IMG/VR virus record: IMGVR_UViG_648276657_000002
Span: 1 to 8,652 of that record
Strand: one strand, 5' to 3'
Source: a virus
Lineage: Duplodnaviria > Heunggongvirae > Uroviricota > Caudoviricetes
Length of the DNA stretch: 8,652 nt
Of this stretch, positions 1 through 8,652 are shown in pieces. The translations under genes were made by a program, and so were the position numbers. Positions within the stretch are counted from its first letter, which is position 1, and each line of letters starts with the position of its first letter. Under the pieces are notes generated by a model. That model was given only the letters and a program-made list of their open reading frames with translations, was not told the DNA's origin and ran no database searches.

Positions 1-30
1 AAAAAAAAAAAAACCCCCGGGGGGGGGGGG
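1..30. repeat. Homopolymer block A13-C5-G12 at the window edge; likely an assembly, tailing or engineered-junction artifact rather than native phage sequence
   Basis: Direct reading: 13 A, 5 C and 12 G in succession. On the minus strand this reads C12-G5-T13 directly after the stop of the 56..286 gene. Confidence 0.5.
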
Positions 31-55
31 TTCTACAGAGGGTTGTAGCTGGATA

Positions 56-286
56 TCATGAGTAGAAGAAGTATGCCAGTTCTGCTTTTGAGCGCAGCCA
101 TTGTCTTGTTTTACAGGCTTTAAAAAGCCCATTCATCAATACTTTACCTGGCATTTTGCGCTTACCTGTTAAGTGAGTCTGGATATAGTGACTCGTCGTT
201 CCGGCTTCCTGTGCGAAGGCTTCACGCTCATCCGGAGTAAGTGCAAGCCAGTGCTTTTTGAAATCGAAATGTCCGTTATCGCTCAT
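56..286 (-). CDS. Cro-like small HTH DNA-binding regulator (Cro/CI-type HTH), transcribed divergently from the repressor candidate
   Basis: 76-aa ORF. The segment AQEAGTTSHYIQTHLTGKRKMP resembles the Cro/YdaS-type helix-turn-helix (compare lambda Cro QSAINKAIHAGRK). It sits opposite the operator cluster and the repressor candidate, as cro does in lambda. No homology search was run. Confidence 0.5.
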   Translation of the reverse strand: MSDNGHFDFKKHWLALTPDEREAFAQEAGTTSHYIQTHLTGKRKMPGKVLMNGLFKACKTRQWLRSKAELAYFFYS

Positions 287-311
287 AGCTATTGCCTGAT
301 ATTTATTTCAG

Positions 312-340
312 ATAATAAATATTCACCCATAAGGTAACAA
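312..340 (-). promoter_or_regulatory. Candidate sigma70 promoter for the Cro-like gene (pR analogue): -35 TTGTTA (reverse complement of 335..340), 17-bp spacer, -10 TATTAT (reverse complement of 312..317)
   Basis: Hexamers read on the minus strand with 17-bp spacing; an operator-like palindrome at 323..337 lies between the -35 and -10. Confidence 0.4.
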
Positions 341-385
341 AAATCAAGGATAGTTACCCATGAGGTGCATTTACCTGTTGGGTAA
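323..385. promoter_or_regulatory. Operator cluster (OR analogue): three 15-bp palindromes of type TTACC-N5-GGTAA at 323..337 (TCACCcataaGGTAA), 354..368 (TTACCcatgaGGTGC) and 371..385 (TTACCtgttgGGTAA)
   Basis: Inverted-repeat half-sites with a fixed 5-bp spacer, found between the divergent Cro-like and repressor genes; the same motif recurs at 1083..1097 and 1145..1159. Confidence 0.55.
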
Positions 386-398
386 TATTGCTTTAAAT

Positions 399-417
399 TG
401 AATCATCTTCTGATTCA
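399..417. promoter_or_regulatory. Perfect 7-5-7 palindrome TGAATCA-tcttc-TGATTCA just upstream of the repressor start; candidate binding site for a second regulator or an RNA hairpin
   Basis: Exact inverted repeat read directly; its half-site sequence differs from the TTACC/GGTAA operators. Confidence 0.35.
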
Positions 418-440
418 GATATGAGGCGATTTTCCAGAAA

Positions 441-1025
441 ATGAAAAGTATCCAGGACGTCCGCAGGCAAAATCTCAACGACTTGATCGACCGTGAATTC
501 AATGGTGTTCAGACGCGGATGGCAGAAAAACTTGGAACTCAGGCAAATCTGGTAAACCGCTGGGCTCTTGGCAAAAAGGTTATCGGCGACCAGGTTGCGC
601 GAAAAATTGAAGCTGCCGCCAATAAACCCCGTAACTGGCTTGATATCGATCGCTCGCTTTCTCAGGAGGGGTTTCAGCCTGTCGGCCCAAGCGACATTGG
701 TCAGCTGGCGGCTCACAACCTGGAACGCTGGATGAGCGAAAGCCGCGACCTTTCAACTCAGGGAAAACTTCACCGCGCATCCGGCGTCGCCCAGGTGACA
801 ATCAGCCGCCTGTTAAACAATGAGGTCAGCGTTTCCATTTCCACCCTGGAGAATGTTGCATCCGCATTCGGGCGTCACGGCTATGAATTACTGATTCACC
901 CGCACGACCCTGCGACTATCAACTATGACCGCTCGCGCTACGCATTGTTACCCGAAACAGAGAAGGCAAAGATCGAAAGTTACATTGAATTTGTCATCAG
1001 CCAGAACGAAAAAAACAAACAATAA
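441..1025 (+). CDS. Prophage repressor candidate (CI analogue): tandem XRE-type HTH protein with no recognisable S24/LexA-like peptidase domain
   Basis: 194-aa ORF. N-terminal HTH region (QTRMAEKLGTQANLVNRWALGKK ... ARKIEAAANKPRNWLD) is typical of phage repressor HTH_XRE domains, and a second HTH-like segment follows (GVAQVTISRLLNNEVSVSISTLENVASAFG). It is flanked by operator palindromes and followed by an intrinsic terminator, matching the lambda cI position. I see no peptidase-type motif. Confidence 0.6.
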   Translation: MKSIQDVRRQNLNDLIDREFNGVQTRMAEKLGTQANLVNRWALGKKVIGDQVARKIEAAANKPRNWLDIDRSLSQEGFQPVGPSDIGQLAAHNLERWMSESRDLSTQGKLHRASGVAQVTISRLLNNEVSVSISTLENVASAFGRHGYELLIHPHDPATINYDRSRYALLPETEKAKIESYIEFVISQNEKNKQ

Positions 1026-1045
1026 AATCATATTTTTCAGTAAGT

Positions 1046-1071
1046 AAGCCGCCTTCTGGCGGCTTTTTTAT
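1046..1071 (+). terminator. Rho-independent terminator after the repressor gene: 8-bp stem AAGCCGCC/GGCGGCTT, loop TTCT, then a T-run
   Basis: Hairpin plus T6 tract read directly, about 20 nt past the 441..1025 stop codon. Confidence 0.75.
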
Positions 1072-1082
1072 TGCCTGTGCGA

Positions 1083-1159
1083 TTACCTAATGGGTAATTT
1101 TTTTAACTCATATCTATTGACATCAAACCAAATACGCATAATTATTACCTCAACGGTAA
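1083..1159 (+). promoter_or_regulatory. Early-operon promoter (pL analogue) with two operator palindromes (OL analogue): TTACCtaatgGGTAA at 1083..1097, -35 TTGACA at 1117..1122, weak -10 near 1140..1145, TTACCtcaacGGTAA at 1145..1159
   Basis: Perfect -35 consensus hexamer; the operator motif matches the OR sites exactly; one site overlaps the -10 region, consistent with repression of the early operon. Confidence 0.5.
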
Positions 1160-1178
1160 CAGACCGAGGTAACAAGTT

Positions 1179-1331
1179 ATGCAGTGGAAAATCATCAACG
1201 GTTGGTACTGCGTTACTGCATGCGGATTCATGAGCTGGAAGTTCCGCACCTTACAGGAAGGCATCAAGTGGGCTTTCGTCAGCAAAGAAGCTCGCGATGT
1301 GGCCAACGATAACGAGATATGGGAGGGCTGA
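1179..1331 (+). CDS. Small hypothetical protein (50 aa), first ORF of the early operon; not in the supplied ORF track (below its length cutoff)
   Basis: ATG at 1179 with a GAGGT Shine-Dalgarno about 8 nt upstream; translation MQWKIINGWYCVTACGFMSWKFRTLQEGIKWAFVSKEARDVANDNEIWEG; TGA stop at 1329..1331, 2 nt before the next start. No family recognised. Confidence 0.35.
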   Translation: MQWKIINGWYCVTACGFMSWKFRTLQEGIKWAFVSKEARDVANDNEIWEG

Positions 1332-1333
1332 TA

Positions 1334-1633
1334 ATGAACGTTAATCAGCAGAAAAATCTTCAAAAAATCATGCTGGCATTCGACAAGGACTACCGCCTGT
1401 CAGAACAGCTATATGACCGACAAGTTGAACTGATTGAGAGCATCCGACTTCATCAACTGTCCTCAACTTTCGACGTTGTAACAGGCAAAGGCGTTCGTCA
1501 GGAAGTGCTGGAAGCTGCTAAAGACAGCCCTGAGTTCGAAGAACTGATGGATGCCTACCGGCGCGAGGCAATGGCGATTATCGCCCGCTGGGATCTGGCG
1601 GATCAGCTTGATGGGCAGAGGGACGCGGCATGA
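1334..1633 (+). CDS. Hypothetical phage early protein (99 aa), translationally coupled to the downstream exonuclease
   Basis: The track ORF 1319..1633 is trimmed to the ATG at 1334, which has a GGGAGGG Shine-Dalgarno 7 nt upstream. Its stop TGA (1631..1633) overlaps the exonuclease ATG (1630). No family recognised. Confidence 0.55.
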   Translation: MNVNQQKNLQKIMLAFDKDYRLSEQLYDRQVELIESIRLHQLSSTFDVVTGKGVRQEVLEAAKDSPEFEELMDAYRREAMAIIARWDLADQLDGQRDAA

Positions 1634-2529
1634 TGCGGAACGCTGGAATCATGGATAGAACAAAATACATCGGAGGAAGCGATGTTGCAGGGATTCTTGG
1701 AATTAGCCCATGGCGCACCCCGCTTGAGGTTTATCTGGATAAGGTCCAGCCACGTGTCAAACCAGTAGACCCAAGCAAGCAGAAAGTTTTCACGCGTGGC
1801 CAGCGTATGGAGCCATACGTAATAGACCTGCTTTCTGAGGAAACAGGGATGGAAATCGTTCATCGCGGAAACCGCTATATCCACCGTGATTACGATTTTA
1901 TTGCAGCTGAGATCGATGCAGAAGCAGCGTCAGGCGAGAACATTGAGATCAAAACAGTTAGTCCGTTCAAAGCCAAAGAATGGGGAGAAATCCAGACAGA
2001 TGCAATTCCTGTGCATTACACGGCCCAGGCCATGCACGGGTTGATGGTTACAAACAAACAGGTATGCGTTTTCGGTGTGCTTATCGGTGGCGACGACTTC
2101 CGAATCTATCGGGTTGAGCGTGATGAAGAAACTATCCAGGCGATCTTAGAAAAAGAAATCGCTTTCTGGGACCGAGTGAAAAATCTTAACCCGCCGGAAG
2201 CTACCAGCGTAAGCGATGTATCGCTGATGTTTGAGAAAGATGCCGGGACAAGTATCGAGGTTGACGGAAAGGCACTCGCACTATTCAACGATCTACGAGA
2301 CATGAAGTCACGCAGAAAATCACTGGAAGAAGAAATAGCTATATCAGAAGAGAAGCTGAAGATGTACATGCAAGAGCACTCAGTCCTGACCCTGGACGGA
2401 AAGCCGCTCTGCACATGGAAATCTCAGATCAGCAACAGATTCGACCAGAAGCTATTCCAGTCAGTACACCCTGAGTTATTCGAAAAATTCAAAACAACAA
2501 CGACACAACGCGTCTTCAGAATGAAGTAA
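1630..2529 (+). CDS. YqaJ-type viral recombinase exonuclease (lambda Exo-like PD-(D/E)XK alkaline exonuclease), partner of RecT
   Basis: 299-aa ORF with the N-terminal YIGGSDVAGILGISPWRTPLEVY segment typical of YqaJ-family exonucleases; sits immediately upstream of recT. The start could instead be the ATG at 1633 or 1651. Confidence 0.8.
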   Translation: MMRNAGIMDRTKYIGGSDVAGILGISPWRTPLEVYLDKVQPRVKPVDPSKQKVFTRGQRMEPYVIDLLSEETGMEIVHRGNRYIHRDYDFIAAEIDAEAASGENIEIKTVSPFKAKEWGEIQTDAIPVHYTAQAMHGLMVTNKQVCVFGVLIGGDDFRIYRVERDEETIQAILEKEIAFWDRVKNLNPPEATSVSDVSLMFEKDAGTSIEVDGKALALFNDLRDMKSRRKSLEEEIAISEEKLKMYMQEHSVLTLDGKPLCTWKSQISNRFDQKLFQSVHPELFEKFKTTTTQRVFRMK

Positions 2530-2538
2530 GGAGAAAAA

Positions 2539-3561
2539 ATGTCTATCAATGCACTTAAGGCAGCGGCTACCGGTAACCAAGTTGCACATCATAATGAGAA
2601 ACCAACAACTCTGGCCGGACTTCTGGCAGACCCAAAAATAAAAGCCCAGATGGCTTTGGCACTTCCAAAGCACATGACAGCAGACCGTCTGGCGCGCATA
2701 GCAACCACAGAGATCCGAAAGGTTCCAAAACTTGCATCATGCGACCAAGCCAGCTTCCTGGGGGCAATTATGCAATGTGCCCAATTGGGTCTTGAACCAG
2801 GTGGAGCTCTTGGACACGCTTACCTGATACCGTTCGACAAACGCCAGAAAGTAAATGGAAGATGGGAAACCGTATCTACAGAAGCACAGCTGATTATCGG
2901 CTATCGCGGAATGATTGACCTTGCCCGCCGCTCTGGGCAGATCCTGAGTATCTCGGCTCGTACCGTACATACAAACGACAAATTCAGCTACTCATACGGC
3001 CTGGAAGAAACGCTCGAGCATTTACCTTGCGAAACAGGTGACCGCGGAGAATTAACGCACGTTTACGCCGTTGCACGACTGAAAGATGGCGGAGTCCAAT
3101 TTGAAGTTATGAGCCGGGCAGACGTTGAGAAAGTTCGTGCACTGAGCAAAGCCGGTAGCAGTGGCCCATGGGTTGATCACTTCGATGAGATGGCTAAAAA
3201 AACAGTAATTCGCCGACTGTTCAAATATCTTCCTGTTTCTATTGAGATGCAGAAGGCTGTTGTTATGGATGAGCGCGCTGAAGCTGGACTTAGCCAAGAT
3301 AACGCAGCTGTTATCACTGGTGAATATTCCGTAGTTGACGATGAGCGTCAACACCTATCGCCAATTTCAGATTCAGAACGAGAAGAAGCTCGAGAATATA
3401 TCATCGCGATACTTAATAGCCTGGATCCATCTGCTGAAGATGCAAAAACGATGTTCAAGCGCGCTGAAAATGAAATTAACACCATGGCTGAAAAGCTCGG
3501 TGATGAATATCACCAAAAATTCATGATGACGCTTAACGATATGCGTCCAGAATTCGAGTAA
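2539..3561 (+). CDS. recT: RecT-family single-strand annealing recombinase
   Basis: 340-aa ORF with long stretches matching E. coli Rac RecT as I recall it (LPKHMTADRLARIATTEIRKVP, LGLEPGGALGHAYLIPF, LIIGYRGMIDLARRSGQI, HVYAVARLKDGGVQFEVM, GPWVDHFDEMAKKTVIRRLFKYLPVSIEMQKAV). Strong AAGGAG RBS upstream. Confidence 0.92.
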   Translation: MSINALKAAATGNQVAHHNEKPTTLAGLLADPKIKAQMALALPKHMTADRLARIATTEIRKVPKLASCDQASFLGAIMQCAQLGLEPGGALGHAYLIPFDKRQKVNGRWETVSTEAQLIIGYRGMIDLARRSGQILSISARTVHTNDKFSYSYGLEETLEHLPCETGDRGELTHVYAVARLKDGGVQFEVMSRADVEKVRALSKAGSSGPWVDHFDEMAKKTVIRRLFKYLPVSIEMQKAVVMDERAEAGLSQDNAAVITGEYSVVDDERQHLSPISDSEREEAREYIIAILNSLDPSAEDAKTMFKRAENEINTMAEKLGDEYHQKFMMTLNDMRPEFE

Positions 3562-3569
3562 CCACCACC

Positions 3570-3588
3570 GCGGCGCCACGCGCGCCGC
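3570..3588 (+). other. GC-only hairpin (7-bp stem GCGGCGC/GCGCCGC, 5-nt loop) in the recT-alpA intergenic region, with no following T-tract
   Basis: Read directly; it lacks the U-run of a canonical intrinsic terminator. Confidence 0.4.
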
Positions 3589-3610
3589 ACTGCAACCAAG
3601 AGAGGTATTT

Positions 3611-3859
3611 ATGAAAGGTGCATTAGGTAAGAAGGAACTCCTGGCGGTGGTGCCACTGTCATGGAGCACTATCGACCGCATGGAGCGCACAGGGGAATTT
3701 CCTAAGCGCTGGTATATCACTGACAAACGCTGCGCATGGAACCGTGATGAAGTTGAGCGTTGGCTTGATGAACGTCAGGCAGCAAGCCCGGCAGAGTTCC
3801 AGGGTAAAAAGCCTCCTGTTCAGCAACGTGTATATCGTCCTGTGAGCAACGCTGCATGA
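3611..3859 (+). CDS. AlpA-family phage regulatory protein (excisionase-like winged HTH)
   Basis: 82-aa ORF; KKELLAVVPLSWSTIDRMERTGEFPKRWYITDKRCAWNRDEVERWLDER matches the AlpA/Xis-type pattern (compare LPEV..LTGLSRSTIYRL...G.FP.P..LG.R...W...EV..W); AGAGAGG RBS upstream. Confidence 0.7.
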   Translation: MKGALGKKELLAVVPLSWSTIDRMERTGEFPKRWYITDKRCAWNRDEVERWLDERQAASPAEFQGKKPPVQQRVYRPVSNAA

Positions 3860-4016
3860 GTGTGCTGCTAAGGCACTGGAGCAAATGGTCAGGATGGTAC
3901 TTATTCCTGGCCTCTGTTTCAGCATGGCTTTATCTGCTGGCATTAATTTTCAGAGAGGGTTGGATTAAGTGAGAAAGTTAAGCCGACTTGAAAAATATCA
4001 CATGAACAAGGTTTCA

Positions 4017-4268
4017 ATGCGCAGTCCGTCAAAGATTGTCGCCGTTACTCCTGCGGCGATAGAGATCGAAAAACGCGCGATTGAAAGAGAGAAAAAAGGG
4101 CAGTTCCGCATTGCCGCCCACCTTTGGCTTCAGTGTATGGATGTTGCTTCTGGTGATGTTGAGCGTGCAAGGATCGCGGTTCGCAGGGACCAATGTATCA
4201 CAAAAGGTAACGGCCTTCGCCGTGGCGACTATAGCGGTATAGGATGTTGCGGGGTAGTTTATGACTAA
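4017..4268 (+). CDS. PerC/ANR-like small transcriptional regulator candidate; the track ORF starts at GTG 3969, and the true start is uncertain (ATG 4002 or 4017)
   Basis: The segment EKKGQFRIAAHLWLQCMDVASGDVERARIAVRRDQC resembles the PerC/Pch pattern (G.WRRAA.RW.DV ... RR..C), recalled from memory and not searched. An AAGG motif lies 7 nt before ATG 4017. Confidence 0.45.
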   Translation: MRSPSKIVAVTPAAIEIEKRAIEREKKGQFRIAAHLWLQCMDVASGDVERARIAVRRDQCITKGNGLRRGDYSGIGCCGVVYD

Positions 4269-4911
4269 GAAATACACACTAATCTATGCAGATCCACCCT
4301 GGGTATACCGGGACAAAGCCGCAGATGGTAATCGCGGTGCCGGTTTTAAATATCCGGTTATGAGTGTGATGGATATCTGCCGCCTTCCTGTGTGGGATTT
4401 GGCCGATGAAAACTGTCTGTTGGCAATGTGGTGGGTGCCAACACAACCACTCGAAGCGCTAAAAGTTGTTGAAGCCTGGGGATTCCGTCTGATGACCATG
4501 AAGGGCTTCACGTGGATAAAATGTGGTAGTCGACAACCAGATAAACTGGTTATGGGTATGGGACACATGACTCGCGCCAATAGTGAAGATTGCCTGTTTG
4601 CAGTAAAGGGAAAACTACCTCCGCGCATTAATGCAGGGATCGTTCAGTCATTTACCGCACCGCGGCTTGAGCATTCAAGAAAACCAGATGTCGTTCGTGA
4701 AAAACTTGTGCAATTGTTAGGCGATGTTTCTCGCATTGAACTGTTCGCCCGCCAGTCGTCTCATGGCTTCGATGTTTGGGGTAATCAGTGCAAAGACCCG
4801 GCGGTGCAACTACACCCAGGATACGCGTTGGATATTGGCGGATTAACAAATGCATTCAGCAATTCTCCGCTTTCACCAACAGACAACCAAGGCCGGGAGC
4901 GTGCAGCATGA
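4261..4911 (+). CDS. MT-A70-family DNA N6-adenine methyltransferase (orphan phage methyltransferase)
   Basis: 216-aa ORF with the DPPW catalytic motif in context IYADPPWVY near the N-terminus. The start overlaps the upstream stop by 8 nt, and the stop TGA overlaps the next ATG. Confidence 0.8.
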
Positions 4912-5567
4912 ACCTATATCAACGCATCAATGGCGCTGACTGGTGCAATATCTTCGTCGTCGGCGATCTGCATGGGTGCTACACGCTGCTGATGAACGAA
5001 CTCGACAAAGTTTCATTCGACCCGGCGCGCGATTTGCTTATTTCCGTTGGTGACCTTGTTGACCGCGGCGCTGAAAACGTCGAATGCCTAGATTTGATTA
5101 CTATGCCGTGGTTCCGAGCTGTTCGTGGCAACCATGAGCAGATGATGCTGGATGCACTGGTCAACGGCGGAAATTTCGGACATTGGATGTCAAACGGCGG
5201 TGGATGGTGGCACCAACTTGATTCTGAGCAGGATGTGCAACTCAAATACCTTCTGCCAAAGATTACCAACCTCCCGATGATTATCGAACTGGTTACCGGC
5301 AATAAGAAGGTCGTCATCTGCCACGCAGACTACCCGCACAACGAATACGCATTCAATAAGCCAGTACCAGAAGAAATGGTGATATGGAATCGTGAGCGGG
5401 TTAGCGACGCGCAGGACGGTATTGTCTCGGAGATAACCGGTGCCGATTTGTTCATCTTCGGTCATACGCCAGCACATCACCCACTGGTGTATGCAAACCA
5501 GATGTACATCGACACAGGGGCAGTGTTCTGCGGAAATCTGACGCTTACCAAAGTCCAAGAAAGATAG
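4908..5567 (+). CDS. Lambda-type Ser/Thr protein phosphatase (calcineurin-like metallophosphatase, PrpA/PrpB / lambda ORF221 family)
   Basis: Metallophosphatase motifs GDLHG, GDLVDRG and GNHE, with an N-terminus ([12 protein letters not shown]) resembling E. coli PrpA. Start placed at the ATG at 4908 (ATGA overlap with the methyltransferase stop) rather than the track start at 4788. Confidence 0.85.
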
Positions 5568-5569
5568 AA

Positions 5570-6742
5570 TTATTTATTACTGTCTTCCATCCACTTCTCA
5601 AACTTCGACGGGGAGAACGGAATCAGATCCGTATGCTCCCCGTTAATCCAGGAATCAATCATATCGGCCCACTGCTGCAACATGTAGGCGCGCTGTCTGG
5701 CGTATTCCGCTTTGTTATATACGGCGCGCACACCTTTCTGCTCATGTGCCAGAGCCTTTTCAATCCAGTCTGAAGGATAACCAGCCTCATGCAACAACGT
5801 ACTGGCTGTACGGCGCATATCGTGTACGGTGAAGTCCTGAATATGCTCACCATCTTCATTTATTATTTTCACCGTTCTGTCGATCAGAGAGTTCAGCGCG
5901 GCATTAGATAATGGCTTCCGGAAGTTGTAACGACCAGGAACCAGATATTCACTTCCACCAGCGCACATCTGCAACCCGACCAATATATCCTGTGCCTGTT
6001 TAGGCAGGTAAATAACGTGCGCCCGGCTTCCCTTCATGCGGTCTGAAGGAATTGTCCATGTCCATTTTTTAAAATCTATTTCGTCCCACGTTGCATTGGT
6101 GAATTCGCCTTTACGAACCATAGTGATAAGCACCAGCTTTAAAGCCATTTTCATAGTACCCATAGCACCAATGGCATCCAGCGTGCGGAAGAACAGGCCA
6201 ATTTCTTCTGGTGTCAGTGTTCGCTCTCGTGGTTTAAATATGGCGATAGACGAAGGTTTAATGTCAGCCGCAGGATTAAATAAACCATGACCACGGTCAT
6301 TGGCGTGACGGTATACGCTGCTGATGATCTCCCTGGCCTGTACTGCTGTTGCACGGCCACCGCGTTCGACAATCCGGTCACACAAATCACGAACCATCGA
6401 TGTGGTAATTTCAGCCATCATTTTGTTGCCAAGAACCGGAAGTATGTCACGGTCGATCACCGCCTGTTTCATTGCGCGGGTACTGTCAGCCAGGATGACG
6501 TGTTTCATATAACTGTCGGTATGTACCGCAAACGTCTCGGCACCACGAATCTTTTTGATACCGTCACGTTTAGCCGCGGCCGGTGACTGGCCTGCTTTAA
6601 GCAGTTTCTTTGCAGCAATCAGTTCTTCCCGCGCTTCTGCCAGGCTGATACCGTCACGCCCATACTGCCCTATTACCAGTGTTTCGCGGCGACCGTTGAT
6701 ACGGTAGTCATAGCGAAACGAGACCGTGCCTGACGTAAGCAC
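5570..6742 (-). CDS. P4-like tyrosine integrase; the reading frame continues upstream to 6805 and is interrupted by an in-frame TAA (6806..6808) inside the conserved N-terminal motif, so it may be a pseudogene or an N-terminally truncated product
   Basis: 390-aa ORF from GTG. Arm-binding region (GLYVAVLTSGTVSFRYDYRINGRRETLVIGQYGRDGISLAEARE) and catalytic region (HDMRRTASTLL ... VYNKAEY) match tyrosine recombinases. Upstream in frame: GTG-L-T-D-T-K-stop-K-T-L-K-P-Q-D-K-L-Y-K-V-S-D-R-D-G-L-Y, the canonical LTDT..K..KP.DK.Y start of P4-like integrases. Confidence 0.85.
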   Translation of the reverse strand: MLTSGTVSFRYDYRINGRRETLVIGQYGRDGISLAEAREELIAAKKLLKAGQSPAAAKRDGIKKIRGAETFAVHTDSYMKHVILADSTRAMKQAVIDRDILPVLGNKMMAEITTSMVRDLCDRIVERGGRATAVQAREIISSVYRHANDRGHGLFNPAADIKPSSIAIFKPRERTLTPEEIGLFFRTLDAIGAMGTMKMALKLVLITMVRKGEFTNATWDEIDFKKWTWTIPSDRMKGSRAHVIYLPKQAQDILVGLQMCAGGSEYLVPGRYNFRKPLSNAALNSLIDRTVKIINEDGEHIQDFTVHDMRRTASTLLHEAGYPSDWIEKALAHEQKGVRAVYNKAEYARQRAYMLQQWADMIDSWINGEHTDLIPFSPSKFEKWMEDSNK

Positions 6743-6853
6743 AGCTACATACAGCCCGTCACGATCGGAGACCTTGTACAGTTTGTCCTGCGGCTTGAGG
6801 GTTTTTTATTTTGTATCGGTAAGCACAATTCACCCGTATAGAAACCATTTTCA

Positions 6854-6891
6854 TGACGGTATGAGAGTATACCTTTAAGGTAATACCGTCA
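6854..6891. promoter_or_regulatory. 9-bp perfect inverted repeat (TGACGGTAT ... ATACCGTCA, 20-bp spacer) enclosing operator-like half-sites (ATACCtttaaGGTAA at 6869..6883); candidate int regulatory or att-associated site between the integrase and guaA
   Basis: Read directly; lies in the int-guaA intergenic region where the prophage-chromosome junction is expected. Confidence 0.35.
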
Positions 6892-6940
6892 CCTGTACCG
6901 CCGAAAAATATGGTGTAGAGTGAATAGAAATGAATACATA

Positions 6941-6970
6941 AAAACAAAAACCCTCTGTAAAAACAGAGGG
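6941..6970 (-). terminator. Rho-independent terminator of guaA (stem CCCTCTG/CAGAGGG, then a T-rich run on the minus strand)
   Basis: Minus-strand read: CCCTCTG-TTTTTA-CAGAGGG followed by TTTTTGTTTT, about 50 nt downstream of the guaA stop. Confidence 0.75.
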
Positions 6971-7018
6971 TTAAATTAGTATCTGAATAGGAATGAGTTG
7001 CTATGAGTTAGCTGTTAA

Positions 7019-8596
7019 TCATTCCCACTCAATAGTCGCTGGCGGCTTGCCGCTGATGTCATACACCACGCGGGAAATACCGTTCACTTCATTGATAATA
7101 CGGTTGGAAACGCGGCCGAGGAAGTCGTACGGCAGATGTGCCCAGTGTGCGGTCATAAAGTCGATGGTTTCGACAGCACGCAGAGAGACAACCCAGTCAT
7201 ACTTACGACCATCGCCCATTACGCCAACGGAACGTACTGGCAGGAAGACGGTGAACGCCTGGCTGACTTTGTCGTACAGGTCCGCTTTACGCAGTTCTTC
7301 AATGAAGATGGCGTCAGCACGGCGCAGCAGGTCACAATACTCTTTCTTCACTTCTCCCAGAACACGAACGCCAAGGCCTGGTCCCGGGAACGGGTGACGG
7401 TACAACATGTCATACGGTAGGCCCAGCTCCAGACCAATCTTACGCACTTCGTCTTTGAACAGCTCTTTCAGCGGTTCAACCAGGCCCATCTTCATCTCTT
7501 TCGGCAGGCCACCCACGTTGTGGTGAGATTTGATGACGTGTGCTTTACCGGTTGCAGAAGCAGCAGATTCGATAACGTCAGGGTAGATGGTGCCCTGCGC
7601 CAGCCACTTCACGTCTTCCAGTTTCAGCGCTTCTTCATCGAATACTTCAACGAAAACGCGACCGATAATTTTACGTTTTGCTTCCGGATCGTTTTCGCCA
7701 GCCAGCGCTGACAAGAAGCGATCTTCTGCCGGTACGTGAACAATGTTCAGACCAAAGTGATCGCCAAACATATCCAGAACCTGCTCTGCTTCGTTGAGAC
7801 GCAGCAGGCCGTTGTCGACGAATACGCAAGTCAGGTTTTTACCGATAGCGCGGTGCAACAGCATTGCGGTAACGGAGGAATCCACGCCACCAGAGAGGCC
7901 GAGGATGACTTTATCGTCGCCCACTTGCTCGCGGATGCGGGCTACAGCGTCGTCGATAATTTTCGCTGGCGTCCACAGGGCTTCACACTGGCAGATATCA
8001 CGCACAAAACGCTCCAGCATGCGCATACCCTGGCGGGTGTGAGTCACTTCCGGGTGGAACTGTACGCCATAGAAGCGTTTTTCTTCGTTGGCCATGATGG
8101 CAAACGGGCAGCTTTCGGTGCTGGCTACGGTGACGAAGTCGGACGGGATAGCGGTAACTTTATCGCCGTGGCTCATCCAGACGTCCAGCAGCGGTTTACC
8201 ATCTGCGGTCAGCGCATCTTCGATACCGCGAACCAGTGCGCTGTCGTTTACGACTTCAACCTGCGCGTAGCCAAATTCACGTTCGTTAGAGGCTTCAACG
8301 TGACCGCCCAACTGCATTGCCATGGTCTGCATGCCATAGCAAACGCCGAATACCGGTACGCCTGCTTCAAAGACATACTGCGGCGCACGCGGGCTGTTTT
8401 CTTCGGTGGTGCTTTCCGGGCCGCCGGAAAGAATAATGCCGCTTGGATTGAAGTCACGAATTTGTGCTTCTGTCACATCCCACGCCCACAGTTCGCAGTA
8501 AACACCCAGCTCACGCACGCGGCGCGCAACTAGTTGAGTGTACTGAGAACCGAAGTCCAGAATGAGGATGCGATGCTTATGAATGTTTTCCGTCAT
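7019..8596 (-). CDS. guaA: GMP synthase (glutamine-hydrolysing), full length
   Basis: 525-aa ORF beginning [40 protein letters not shown] and ending ATIEWE, recognised as enterobacterial GuaA; includes the class I glutamine amidotransferase domain and the SGGVDSS ATP-pyrophosphatase motif. Confidence 0.97.
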
Positions 8597-8652
8597 TGAC
8601 GCTTATTCCGAGGCAAGTGAAACAGATAATATAAATCGCCCGACATGAAGTC

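Follow-up and report, generated by a model that had tools for sequence, protein, structure and literature searches.

The 194-aa protein encoded at positions 441 to 1025 of the DNA analysed here (a stretch of 8652 bp, referred to below as the window) is, with a probability that we put at about 0.87, the immunity (lysogeny-maintenance) repressor of a Uetakevirus prophage and a member of the SPC32H Rep family, with induction of the prophage taking place via the antirepressor gene ant. The Rep/Ant type of switch is already known, and the protein, called Rep below, is nearly identical to proteins of named and published phages.

The window is made up of the right arm of a prophage and the flanking host gene guaA. 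Window positions 22-8652 match the chromosome of E. coli APEC O1 with 98.5% identity. Among 5426 complete E. coli genomes, 75 contain at least 80% of the window, and the highest identity reached over the immunity region is 98.4%. The APEC O1 counterpart is a 39.8-kb prophage with an epsilon15-type capsid staple, a Bbp16-type cement protein, a T7 gp14-like core protein and a tRNA-Arg. Its ends are marked by the 17-bp core attgagtgggaatgatt, the sequence that the paper on the sister phage vB_EcoP_ZX5 reports to be attP/attB, located at the guaA 3' end. This structural-gene set and the guaA attachment core together identify the element, as judged from its sequence, as a Uetakevirus (phiV10/epsilon15-like podovirus) prophage located at the 3' end of guaA. 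The gene order in the window is that of SPC32H and phiV10 (rep, Cro-like gene, exo/recT, alpA, perC, methylase, int): small ORFs, exo, recT, an alpA-like gene, a perC-like gene, the methylase gene and int follow downstream of rep, and the Cro-like gene is found on the opposite strand, just inside the left end of the window. The early-left operon is a mosaic in comparison with phiV10, in that YqaJ and RecT are encoded by separate genes in the window, and the DUF1382 gene of phiV10 is replaced by one for a Ser/Thr phosphatase. The repressor gene and the two features that frame the prophage part of the window are as follows.

441 to 1025, plus strand: rep, the predicted immunity repressor gene; ATG start, 194 aa, homologue of phiV10 gp40.
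56 to 286, minus strand: Cro-like small HTH regulator of 76 aa, divergent from rep; member of PHROG 35, syntenic with phiV10 gp41 and SPC32H_042.
7017 to 7033, minus strand: attR core attgagtgggaatgatt, which overlaps with the stop codon of guaA and marks where the prophage ends on the right.

A preliminary description of this DNA had assigned the 194-aa ORF to the cI position, and the assignment holds: the ORF is divergent from the 76-aa Cro-like gene with palindromic operators clustered between the two, and on its 3' side a terminator is followed by an operator-flanked promoter and by the early-left recombination operon of an epsilon15-like podovirus prophage. The gene is real and conserved. 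The 86 homologues of Rep found among 5.8 billion proteins come from Enterobacteriaceae (Escherichia, Citrobacter, Lelliottia, Serratia and others) and are nearly all about 194 aa long; sequenced phages gave 36 full-length matches.

The same description had noticed two HTH-like segments and no recognisable peptidase domain in the protein, and had proposed profile-HMM searches and structure prediction as a check for a peptidase S24 fold. Both were carried out and no such fold was detected. The Pfam search placed HTH_3 at Rep residues 106-147 (E 1.2e-9); at residues 21-61 it gave a YdaS/HTH-type match that is weak (E 3e-4) and below the cut-off. No match to PF00717 was found in Rep or in any of the 86 homologues. 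The AlphaFold2 model, built from an alignment of 33 homologues (mean pLDDT 77.8), consists of two all-helical lobes, residues 1-70 and 85-193, joined by a disordered linker of low confidence, and contains no beta-rich domain. When the model was compared with the PDB by Foldseek, the top matches were the Rep chains of 5D50 and 5D4Z, and the neighbours comprised only Rep structures and XRE-type HTH proteins, with no S24 structure among them; DdrO appeared as a weak match of the HTH fold only. The absence of the peptidase is therefore borne out by profile search, predicted model and structural neighbours alike. As for the two HTH-like segments, both are present in the Pfam results and in the model, but the second corresponds by homology to a dimerisation domain and not to a DNA reader.

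These results bear directly on the possibility that Rep undergoes a cryptic RecA-stimulated autoproteolysis as in lambda cI or LexA. Only the general prior speaks for it, most lambdoid repressors being inactivated in this way. In the LexA/lambda cI class, repressors have an S24 domain built on a Ser-Lys dyad and are cleaved at Ala-Gly or Cys-Gly; neither Rep nor its 86 homologues match the S24 profile, the all-helical model has only Rep chains and XRE HTH proteins as structural neighbours, no Ala-Gly or Cys-Gly dipeptide exists in the Rep sequence, and a homologue of Rep is described, in the available part of the literature on it, as inactivated by Ant. A cryptic S24 fold is rejected as far as sequence and fold allow, and autoproteolysis of Rep appears extremely improbable.

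The family assignment of Rep rests on direct matches to solved structures. In phmmer searches against the PDB, residues 1-190 of the 194 residues match 5D50_A, named 'Repressor', with an E value of 4.1e-42 (entry title 'Crystal structure of Rep-Ant complex from Salmonella-temperate phage'), and the C-terminal fragment 5D4Z is matched with an E value of 4.2e-20 ('Crystal structure of Repressor from Salmonella-temperate phage'). In 5D50, Rep and Ant form a hetero-octamer. Against a phage collection (tblastn), Rep is 41.8-42.3% identical to the repressors of SPC32H, SPN1S and epsilon15, 45% to those of Klebsiella phages and 75-78% to those of Enterobacter phages; in phiV10, vB_EcoP_ZX5, TL-2011b, two O157 typing phages and others, the annotated repressors are 99.0-99.5% identical to it. 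The sole difference from phiV10 gp40 is S187N, and phiV10 gp40, vB_EcoP_ZX5 ORF21 and the TL-2011b protein are nearly the same protein in phages that likewise integrate at the 3' end of guaA. The domain map below follows the SPC32H Rep, the last two entries being assigned by homology.

441 to 650, plus strand: N-terminal DNA-binding domain (DBD), Rep residues 1-70; four-helix HTH, 54% identical to SPC32H Rep.
Rep residues 71-84, plus strand: linker, with 4 of 14 residues identical to SPC32H Rep.
693 to 893, plus strand: probable middle dimerisation domain (MDD), Rep residues 85-151; HTH_3 fold, 31% identical to SPC32H Rep.
894 to 1022, plus strand: probable C-terminal tetramerisation and Ant-binding domain (CAD/TetDloop), Rep residues 152-194; 44% identical to SPC32H Rep.

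A DBD, a middle domain of HTH_3 fold and a short C-terminal part without peptidase is the architecture of an SPC32H-type Rep. Rep has in common with the Rep of Salmonella phage SPC32H/SPN1S (Uetakevirus; PDB 5D4Z and 5D50) homology over the full length, the three-part architecture, the genome position and the TTACC/GGTAA half-site, and relatives of the window prophage encode the same family of Ant partner (87-88% identical) behind a LexA box. The difference between the two proteins lies in an uneven divergence, as the identities of the domains show. The predicted recognition helix of Rep, at about residues 35-43, contains NLVNRW, which is nearly invariant across the homologues. The second HTH-like lobe is most likely an XRE-fold dimerisation module and not a DNA reader. 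Its reading as a second DNA-reading head, which would make one chain a pseudo-dimer, was rejected because the palindromic operators are symmetric and the corresponding domain of SPC32H Rep is described as a dimerisation domain.

The control regions on the two sides of rep are arranged as listed here, together with a further palindrome near int.

323 to 385, no strand assigned: OR-like operator cluster of three palindromes between rep and the Cro-like gene.
312 to 340, minus strand: predicted PR-like sigma-70 promoter directed toward the Cro-like and replication genes, overlapped by the operator at 323-337.
About 1046 to 1073, plus strand: putative intrinsic terminator of the rep transcript, annotated at the equivalent place in phiV10.
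1083 to 1159, plus strand: OL/PL-like control region with exact operators at 1083-1097 and 1145-1159, whose centres are 62 bp apart.
1117 to 1145, plus strand: predicted PL-like near-consensus promoter (TTGACA, 17-nt spacer, AATTAT), flanked by the two exact operators.
6869 to 6883, no strand assigned: operator-like palindrome ATACCTTTAAGGTAA with 1 mismatch, about 43 bp upstream of int.

The immunity region thus has a lambda-like layout in the OR/OL style. The palindrome TTACC-N5-GGTAA occurs in exact form at 371-385, 1083-1097 and 1145-1159, with 1 mismatch at 323-337 and with 2 mismatches at 354-368, these three exact and two near-exact copies being confined to the two control regions of the window. 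With up to 2 mismatches allowed, eight copies are found in the window versus 2.4 expected, a count reached by none of 200 shuffled sequences. The predicted PL-like promoter heads the early-left operon of exo, recT, the alpA-like and perC-like genes, the methylase gene and the phosphatase gene. On the side of rep itself, no convincing -35/-10 pair of a PRM-like promoter was recognised when positions 340-440 were read by eye. The palindrome ATACCTTTAAGGTAA keeps its position upstream of int in phiV10, SPC32H and APEC O1, and is possibly under Rep control as well. In the window sequence, codon 7 of int reads TAA.

The motif is also abundant in whole genomes. At up to 1 mismatch, SPC32H carries 18 copies (10 exact) and phiV10 carries 14 (8 exact), with fewer than 1 expected in each; 12 of the 14 palindromes in the APEC O1 prophage are located in the non-coding part, which makes up 8.5% of that prophage, and a Rep-type palindrome is also present in the intergenic region between ant and the tailspike gene. 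On the grounds of position, enrichment, symmetry and the conserved predicted recognition helix, we consider TTACC-N5-GGTAA a candidate Rep operator.

Since operators between divergent genes normally serve both products, and since the 76-aa HTH protein encoded at 56-286 matches PHROG 35, 'transcriptional repressor', the true immunity repressor could be that protein or the product of another gene, with Rep in a different regulatory role. The 76-aa gene, however, occupies the Cro position, as the first gene of the replication operon, the SPC32H orthologue of the 194-aa protein is the characterised Rep, and the near-identical ZX5 ORF21 by itself blocks lytic growth and transcription when overexpressed (PMC9782041). 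In that experiment with ORF21, which is 99.5% identical to Rep, free phage dropped to zero and the mRNAs of holin and endolysin were reduced by 99.97-99.99% (PMC9782041). We regard it as highly improbable that another gene encodes the immunity repressor.

With Rep as the immunity repressor, lysogeny would be maintained as follows. The N-terminal HTH of Rep is expected by homology to read the 15-bp TTACC-N5-GGTAA palindromes at the divergent PR-like promoter and at the PL-like promoter of the early-left operon. Dimers would form through the middle domain of HTH_3 fold, and the C-terminal domain would join dimers into a tetramer able to hold two operators at once; the distance between the paired sites is 62 bp. 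The available part of the SPC32H literature describes Rep as reversibly assembling between dimers and tetramers, with the dimer a weak DNA binder and the tetramer the form that binds DNA; Ant breaks the tetramer (PMC9638917). It also states that the two DNA-binding domains on one palindrome belong to different dimers, and gives the layout as DBD-MDD-CAD, the CAD being a p53-like 'TetDloop' that both tetramerises and binds Ant (PMC9986798).

Without an S24 peptidase, Rep should stay uncleaved in the SOS response. Induction would start with the inactivation of host LexA by DNA damage, which would free the consensus SOS box at the promoter of ant (85 aa). By homology, this gene should lie next to the tailspike gene, some 30 kb beyond the window; newly made Ant would bind the C-terminal domain of Rep and convert the tetramer to dimers that bind DNA poorly, and the lytic promoters would be derepressed. 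In the SPC32H system, according to the genetic work of Kim and Ryu in 2013, Rep reportedly remains uncleaved during SOS and ant is repressed by LexA, and one base change in the LexA box is said to have made SPC32N constitutively lytic. The same order of events, with self-cleavage of LexA leading to production of an antirepressor that inhibits the repressor by protein-protein contact, is given in the available part of PMC7380047 (citing Kim & Ryu 2013). For the Rep of the window, tetramerisation, Ant binding and lack of cleavage are thus predicted from homology or literature.

The preliminary description had argued that a repressor of this kind excludes the RecA self-cleavage route and calls for an antirepressor, which it did not see in the window. 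Literature on the Rep family and the occurrence of ant with a LexA box in the closest relatives support the argument, with ant outside the window. Its absence from the window was confirmed: tblastn of Ant from SPC32H, phiV10 and APEC O1 and of the BRO-N proteins gave no significant match in the window, which also contains no exact LexA box (CTGT-N8-ACAG), and the five matches with 1 mismatch are at chance level (2.8 expected); no gene under SOS control was recognised there. An antirepressor gene behind a LexA box had been proposed as something to look for elsewhere in the prophage, and one was found in every relative examined (phiV10, APEC O1 and SPC32H). In the closest relatives, APEC O1 and phiV10, ant sits beside the tailspike gene about 30 kb from rep. 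In SPC32H, ant is SPC32H_020 (86 aa), adjoining and divergent from the tailspike gene, with the LexA box CTGTATGTTTATACAG just upstream. In phiV10 the counterpart is gp24, annotated as a 'hypothetical protein', which is 88% identical to SPC32H Ant and has the LexA box CTGTGTATTTATACAG directly upstream. The APEC O1 prophage has its ant some 28 kb left of rep; the gene encodes 85 aa (given as MQQYHYPLEDGF...) with 87% identity to SPC32H Ant. Its LexA box CTGTATAAATATACAG lies directly upstream, and TACTGTATAAATATACAGTT before this gene is a near-perfect SOS box.

The two genes also travel together. Among 5426 complete E. coli genomes the rep region was found in 539 and the ant region in 530, the distance between rep and ant is 21-30 kb in all nine accessions common to both sampled genome lists, and the phage collection holds 36 full-length Rep records and 35 Ant records with the same host distribution. 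By homology, ant and its LexA box would be expected in the window prophage itself. Cognate binding between this Rep and its Ant is a prediction: against 87-88% identity for Ant, the Ant-binding domain of Rep shares no more than 44% with its SPC32H counterpart.

The release of about 1e7 PFU/mL from ZX5 lysogens by spontaneous induction, as given in the available part of the source, would also fit an induction that is independent of SOS, through host proteolysis, through a metalloprotease partner of the ImmA/IrrE type, or purely stochastic. Against this, a domain scan (Pfam) of ten window ORFs found no COG2856/ImmA-like metalloprotease of the ImmR/ImmA or DdrO/IrrE type, a LexA box precedes ant in the relatives, and phiV10-type prophages respond to a DNA-damaging microcin: in gut isolates, prophages of the phiV10 species were induced 21- and 47-fold (bioRxiv 10.64898/2026.05.26.727859). 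The microcin response is consistent with SOS control, and an SOS-independent route seems very unlikely.

Control of induction by LexA via Ant invites comparison with the 186-type and Gifsy-type systems, which had been offered as parallels. The parallel is valid for the logic, but not as membership of the same family. Coliphage 186 (CI/Tum) and Salmonella Gifsy share with Rep/Ant a non-cleavable repressor and a small antirepressor made from a LexA-repressed promoter. In direct sequence comparison, however, no significant similarity was found between Ant and 186 Tum (pairwise E 0.056 over 47 residues) or between Rep and 186 CI (BLASTP E 4.8), and membership of Rep/Ant in the 186 Tum/CI system was rejected on this basis. 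The mode of action also differs, in that Ant, according to the literature, disassembles the Rep tetramer via the C-terminal domain and does not act by occluding the DNA-binding surface. The 186 and Gifsy systems are functional analogues of Rep/Ant only. With lambda cI and LexA the likeness lies in the position in the immunity region, the divergent promoters, the multiple operators and the link of induction to SOS; Rep differs in having neither an S24 (Ser-Lys dyad) domain nor an Ala-Gly cleavage site, and the SOS signal would reach it indirectly, by homology through LexA control of ant.

A second candidate for the antirepressor exists in the E. coli phages. Residues 150-226 of the BRO-N protein (APEC O1 orthologue) are 42% identical to Ant (BLASTP E 4e-16), and its C-terminal part matches chain E of PDB 5D50 with an E value of 2.7e-13. 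Two Ant-like places are found in most E. coli phages of the Rep group and one in the Salmonella members; SPC32H lacks the BRO-N::Ant-like gene, which is an extra in the E. coli relatives. Given the homology of the BRO-N C-terminus to Ant, there are two proteins with an Ant domain in E. coli members and one in Salmonella members. In the paper on phage ZX5 the label 'anti-repressor' was given to the BRO-N protein ORF4 (231 aa), the small Ant homologue being annotated as hypothetical, and overexpression of ORF4 reduced lysogens from 1e9 to 1e6 and rep mRNA by 75% (PMC9782041); the homology of its C-terminal domain to Ant would explain why ORF4 pushed the phage toward lysis.

The working antirepressor in E. 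coli phiV10-type prophages might accordingly be the BRO-N protein encoded downstream of ant, acting instead of or beside the small Ant. Besides the ORF4 experiment, the Ant-homologous C-terminus and the two Ant-like places, the divergence of the Rep C-terminal domain from SPC32H, in which the small Ant does not share, points in this direction. The ZX5 experiment, however, covered ORF4 and left the small Ant outside; the small Ant with its LexA box is kept in every relative examined, some E. coli phages such as PAS61 show only one Ant-like place, and the phiV10 annotation places a terminator between gp24 and gp23. Taking these points together, we judge this role of the BRO-N protein rather unlikely; it would be compatible with a role of the small Ant, and either of the two may be the main partner of Rep.

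Two Ant-domain proteins, uneven conservation and widespread palindromes lead to the tentative idea, somewhat doubtful at present, that the SPC32H switch exists in a more complex form in E. coli phiV10-type prophages. Conservation of Ant above that of its target domain in Rep suggests either cross-induction of Uetakevirus prophages between hosts or a division of labour between two Ants. With about a dozen intergenic palindromes genome-wide, among them those upstream of int and between ant and the tailspike gene, Rep could act as a silencer across the whole genome and keep its own antirepressor locked too, so that Rep and LexA would form a double lock. In the literature found, such a double lock, cross-induction or division of labour is not established for phiV10-type phages.

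The Rep family itself has reportedly been treated before, in genetic work in 2013 (Kim and Ryu) and in crystal structures in 2016 (Kim et al.). Work published in 2022 tested ZX5 ORF21, the near-identical protein from E. coli, by overexpression (PMC9782041). For the biology of lysogeny switches the present analysis contains nothing new, and the residual novelty lies outside the window: the Ant domain is duplicated, Ant and the domain that it targets are unevenly conserved, and operator-like palindromes are spread over the genome. Its main value is in annotation: the immunity region is present in about one tenth of complete E. coli genomes (539 of 5426), in which rep is usually labelled 'helix-turn-helix domain-containing protein' and its partner ant 'hypothetical protein'. 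Once the pair is recognised as a Rep/Ant switch of the SPC32H type, these guaA-linked prophages can therefore be understood as SOS-inducible via LexA, without cleavage of the repressor.

The palindrome TTACC-N5-GGTAA, the putative operator of the immunity repressor Rep judging by its position and enrichment, is found at about 12 intergenic sites spread over the whole phage genome in the APEC O1 prophage, SPC32H and phiV10, including the following:

Ant/tailspike intergenic region (Ant being the small LexA-controlled antirepressor of relatives)
Downstream of ant and downstream of the gene for the BRO-N protein, sites at both places
Upstream of the head genes
Within the start of terS
Between the DUF1064 gene and the P gene
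After the Cro-like gene

Several pairs of these palindromes are spaced by exactly 62 bp, a distance at which one tetramer could well span both members of a putative operator pair. An operator-like palindrome also lies between the integrase gene int and the att core, approximately 43 bp upstream of int, and is kept in all four of these sequences (the window, phiV10, SPC32H and APEC O1); it may serve in control of int by Rep, or it may be an unrelated recombination site.

Window 6869-6883, operator-like palindrome, ATACCTTTAAGGTAA
phiV10 26870-26884, the same palindrome
SPC32H 26960-26974, the same palindrome
Window 5570-6826, - strand, int reading frame with a TAA stop at codon 7 (6806-6808)

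The int N-terminus reads VLTDTK*KTLKPQ in the window and VLTDTKLKNLKPQ in APEC O1, and the codon-7 region differs from that of APEC O1 by two bases, both inside a stretch rich in A. The TAA may be a homopolymer sequencing error; otherwise int is a pseudogene, or encodes a shortened product of 390 aa that lacks some of the arm-binding domain, and the prophage would be excision-defective. Homopolymer runs (A13 C5 G12 TTC) occupy the very start of the window (1-31), where no E. coli genome matches and alignments begin only at 22 or 32; the equivalent place in APEC O1 holds an ordinary terminator hairpin, AAAAGACCGCCGGGTGGCGGTCT. The window start appears to be an artefact, either of a contig end or of homopolymers in long reads, or else a degenerate form of the hairpin.

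The early-left operon of the window contains:

3969-4268, PerC-family activator
4261-4911, MT-A70 adenine methyltransferase
about 4908-5567, lambda-PP-like Ser/Thr phosphatase

The phosphatase gene takes the place of the DUF1382 gene of phiV10, and the early-left region is therefore mosaic. At least 80% of the whole window is held by only 75 of the 5426 complete E. coli genomes, and the immunity region by 539.

The tailspike gene of APEC O1, the closest relative (11542-14661), is annotated as an endosialidase and is equal in length to the ZX5 tail-fibre gene (3120 bp). An endosialidase tailspike would mean K1-capsule specificity for APEC O1/ZX5-type prophages; the target of phiV10 is the O157 antigen.

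The antirepressor and BRO-N genes of the relatives are located as follows:

SPC32H 19676-19936, ant
phiV10 20543-20800, ant
APEC O1 14857-15114, ant
APEC O1 15430-16125, BRO-N gene downstream of ant
ZX5 1078-1773, BRO-N gene (ORF4) downstream of ant

Residues 150-226 of the BRO-N protein form a C-terminal Ant-like domain with 42% identity to Ant (E = 2.7e-13 against chain E of the Rep-Ant complex, PDB 5D50), for which Pfam has no model, nor has it a family for Ant. Salmonella and E. coli Uetakeviruses share 87-88% identity in Ant but just 42% in the repressor (44% over its Ant-binding domain). Such uneven conservation is unusual in a cognate pair and may point to cross-reactivity, or to Ant being constrained by something besides Rep binding.
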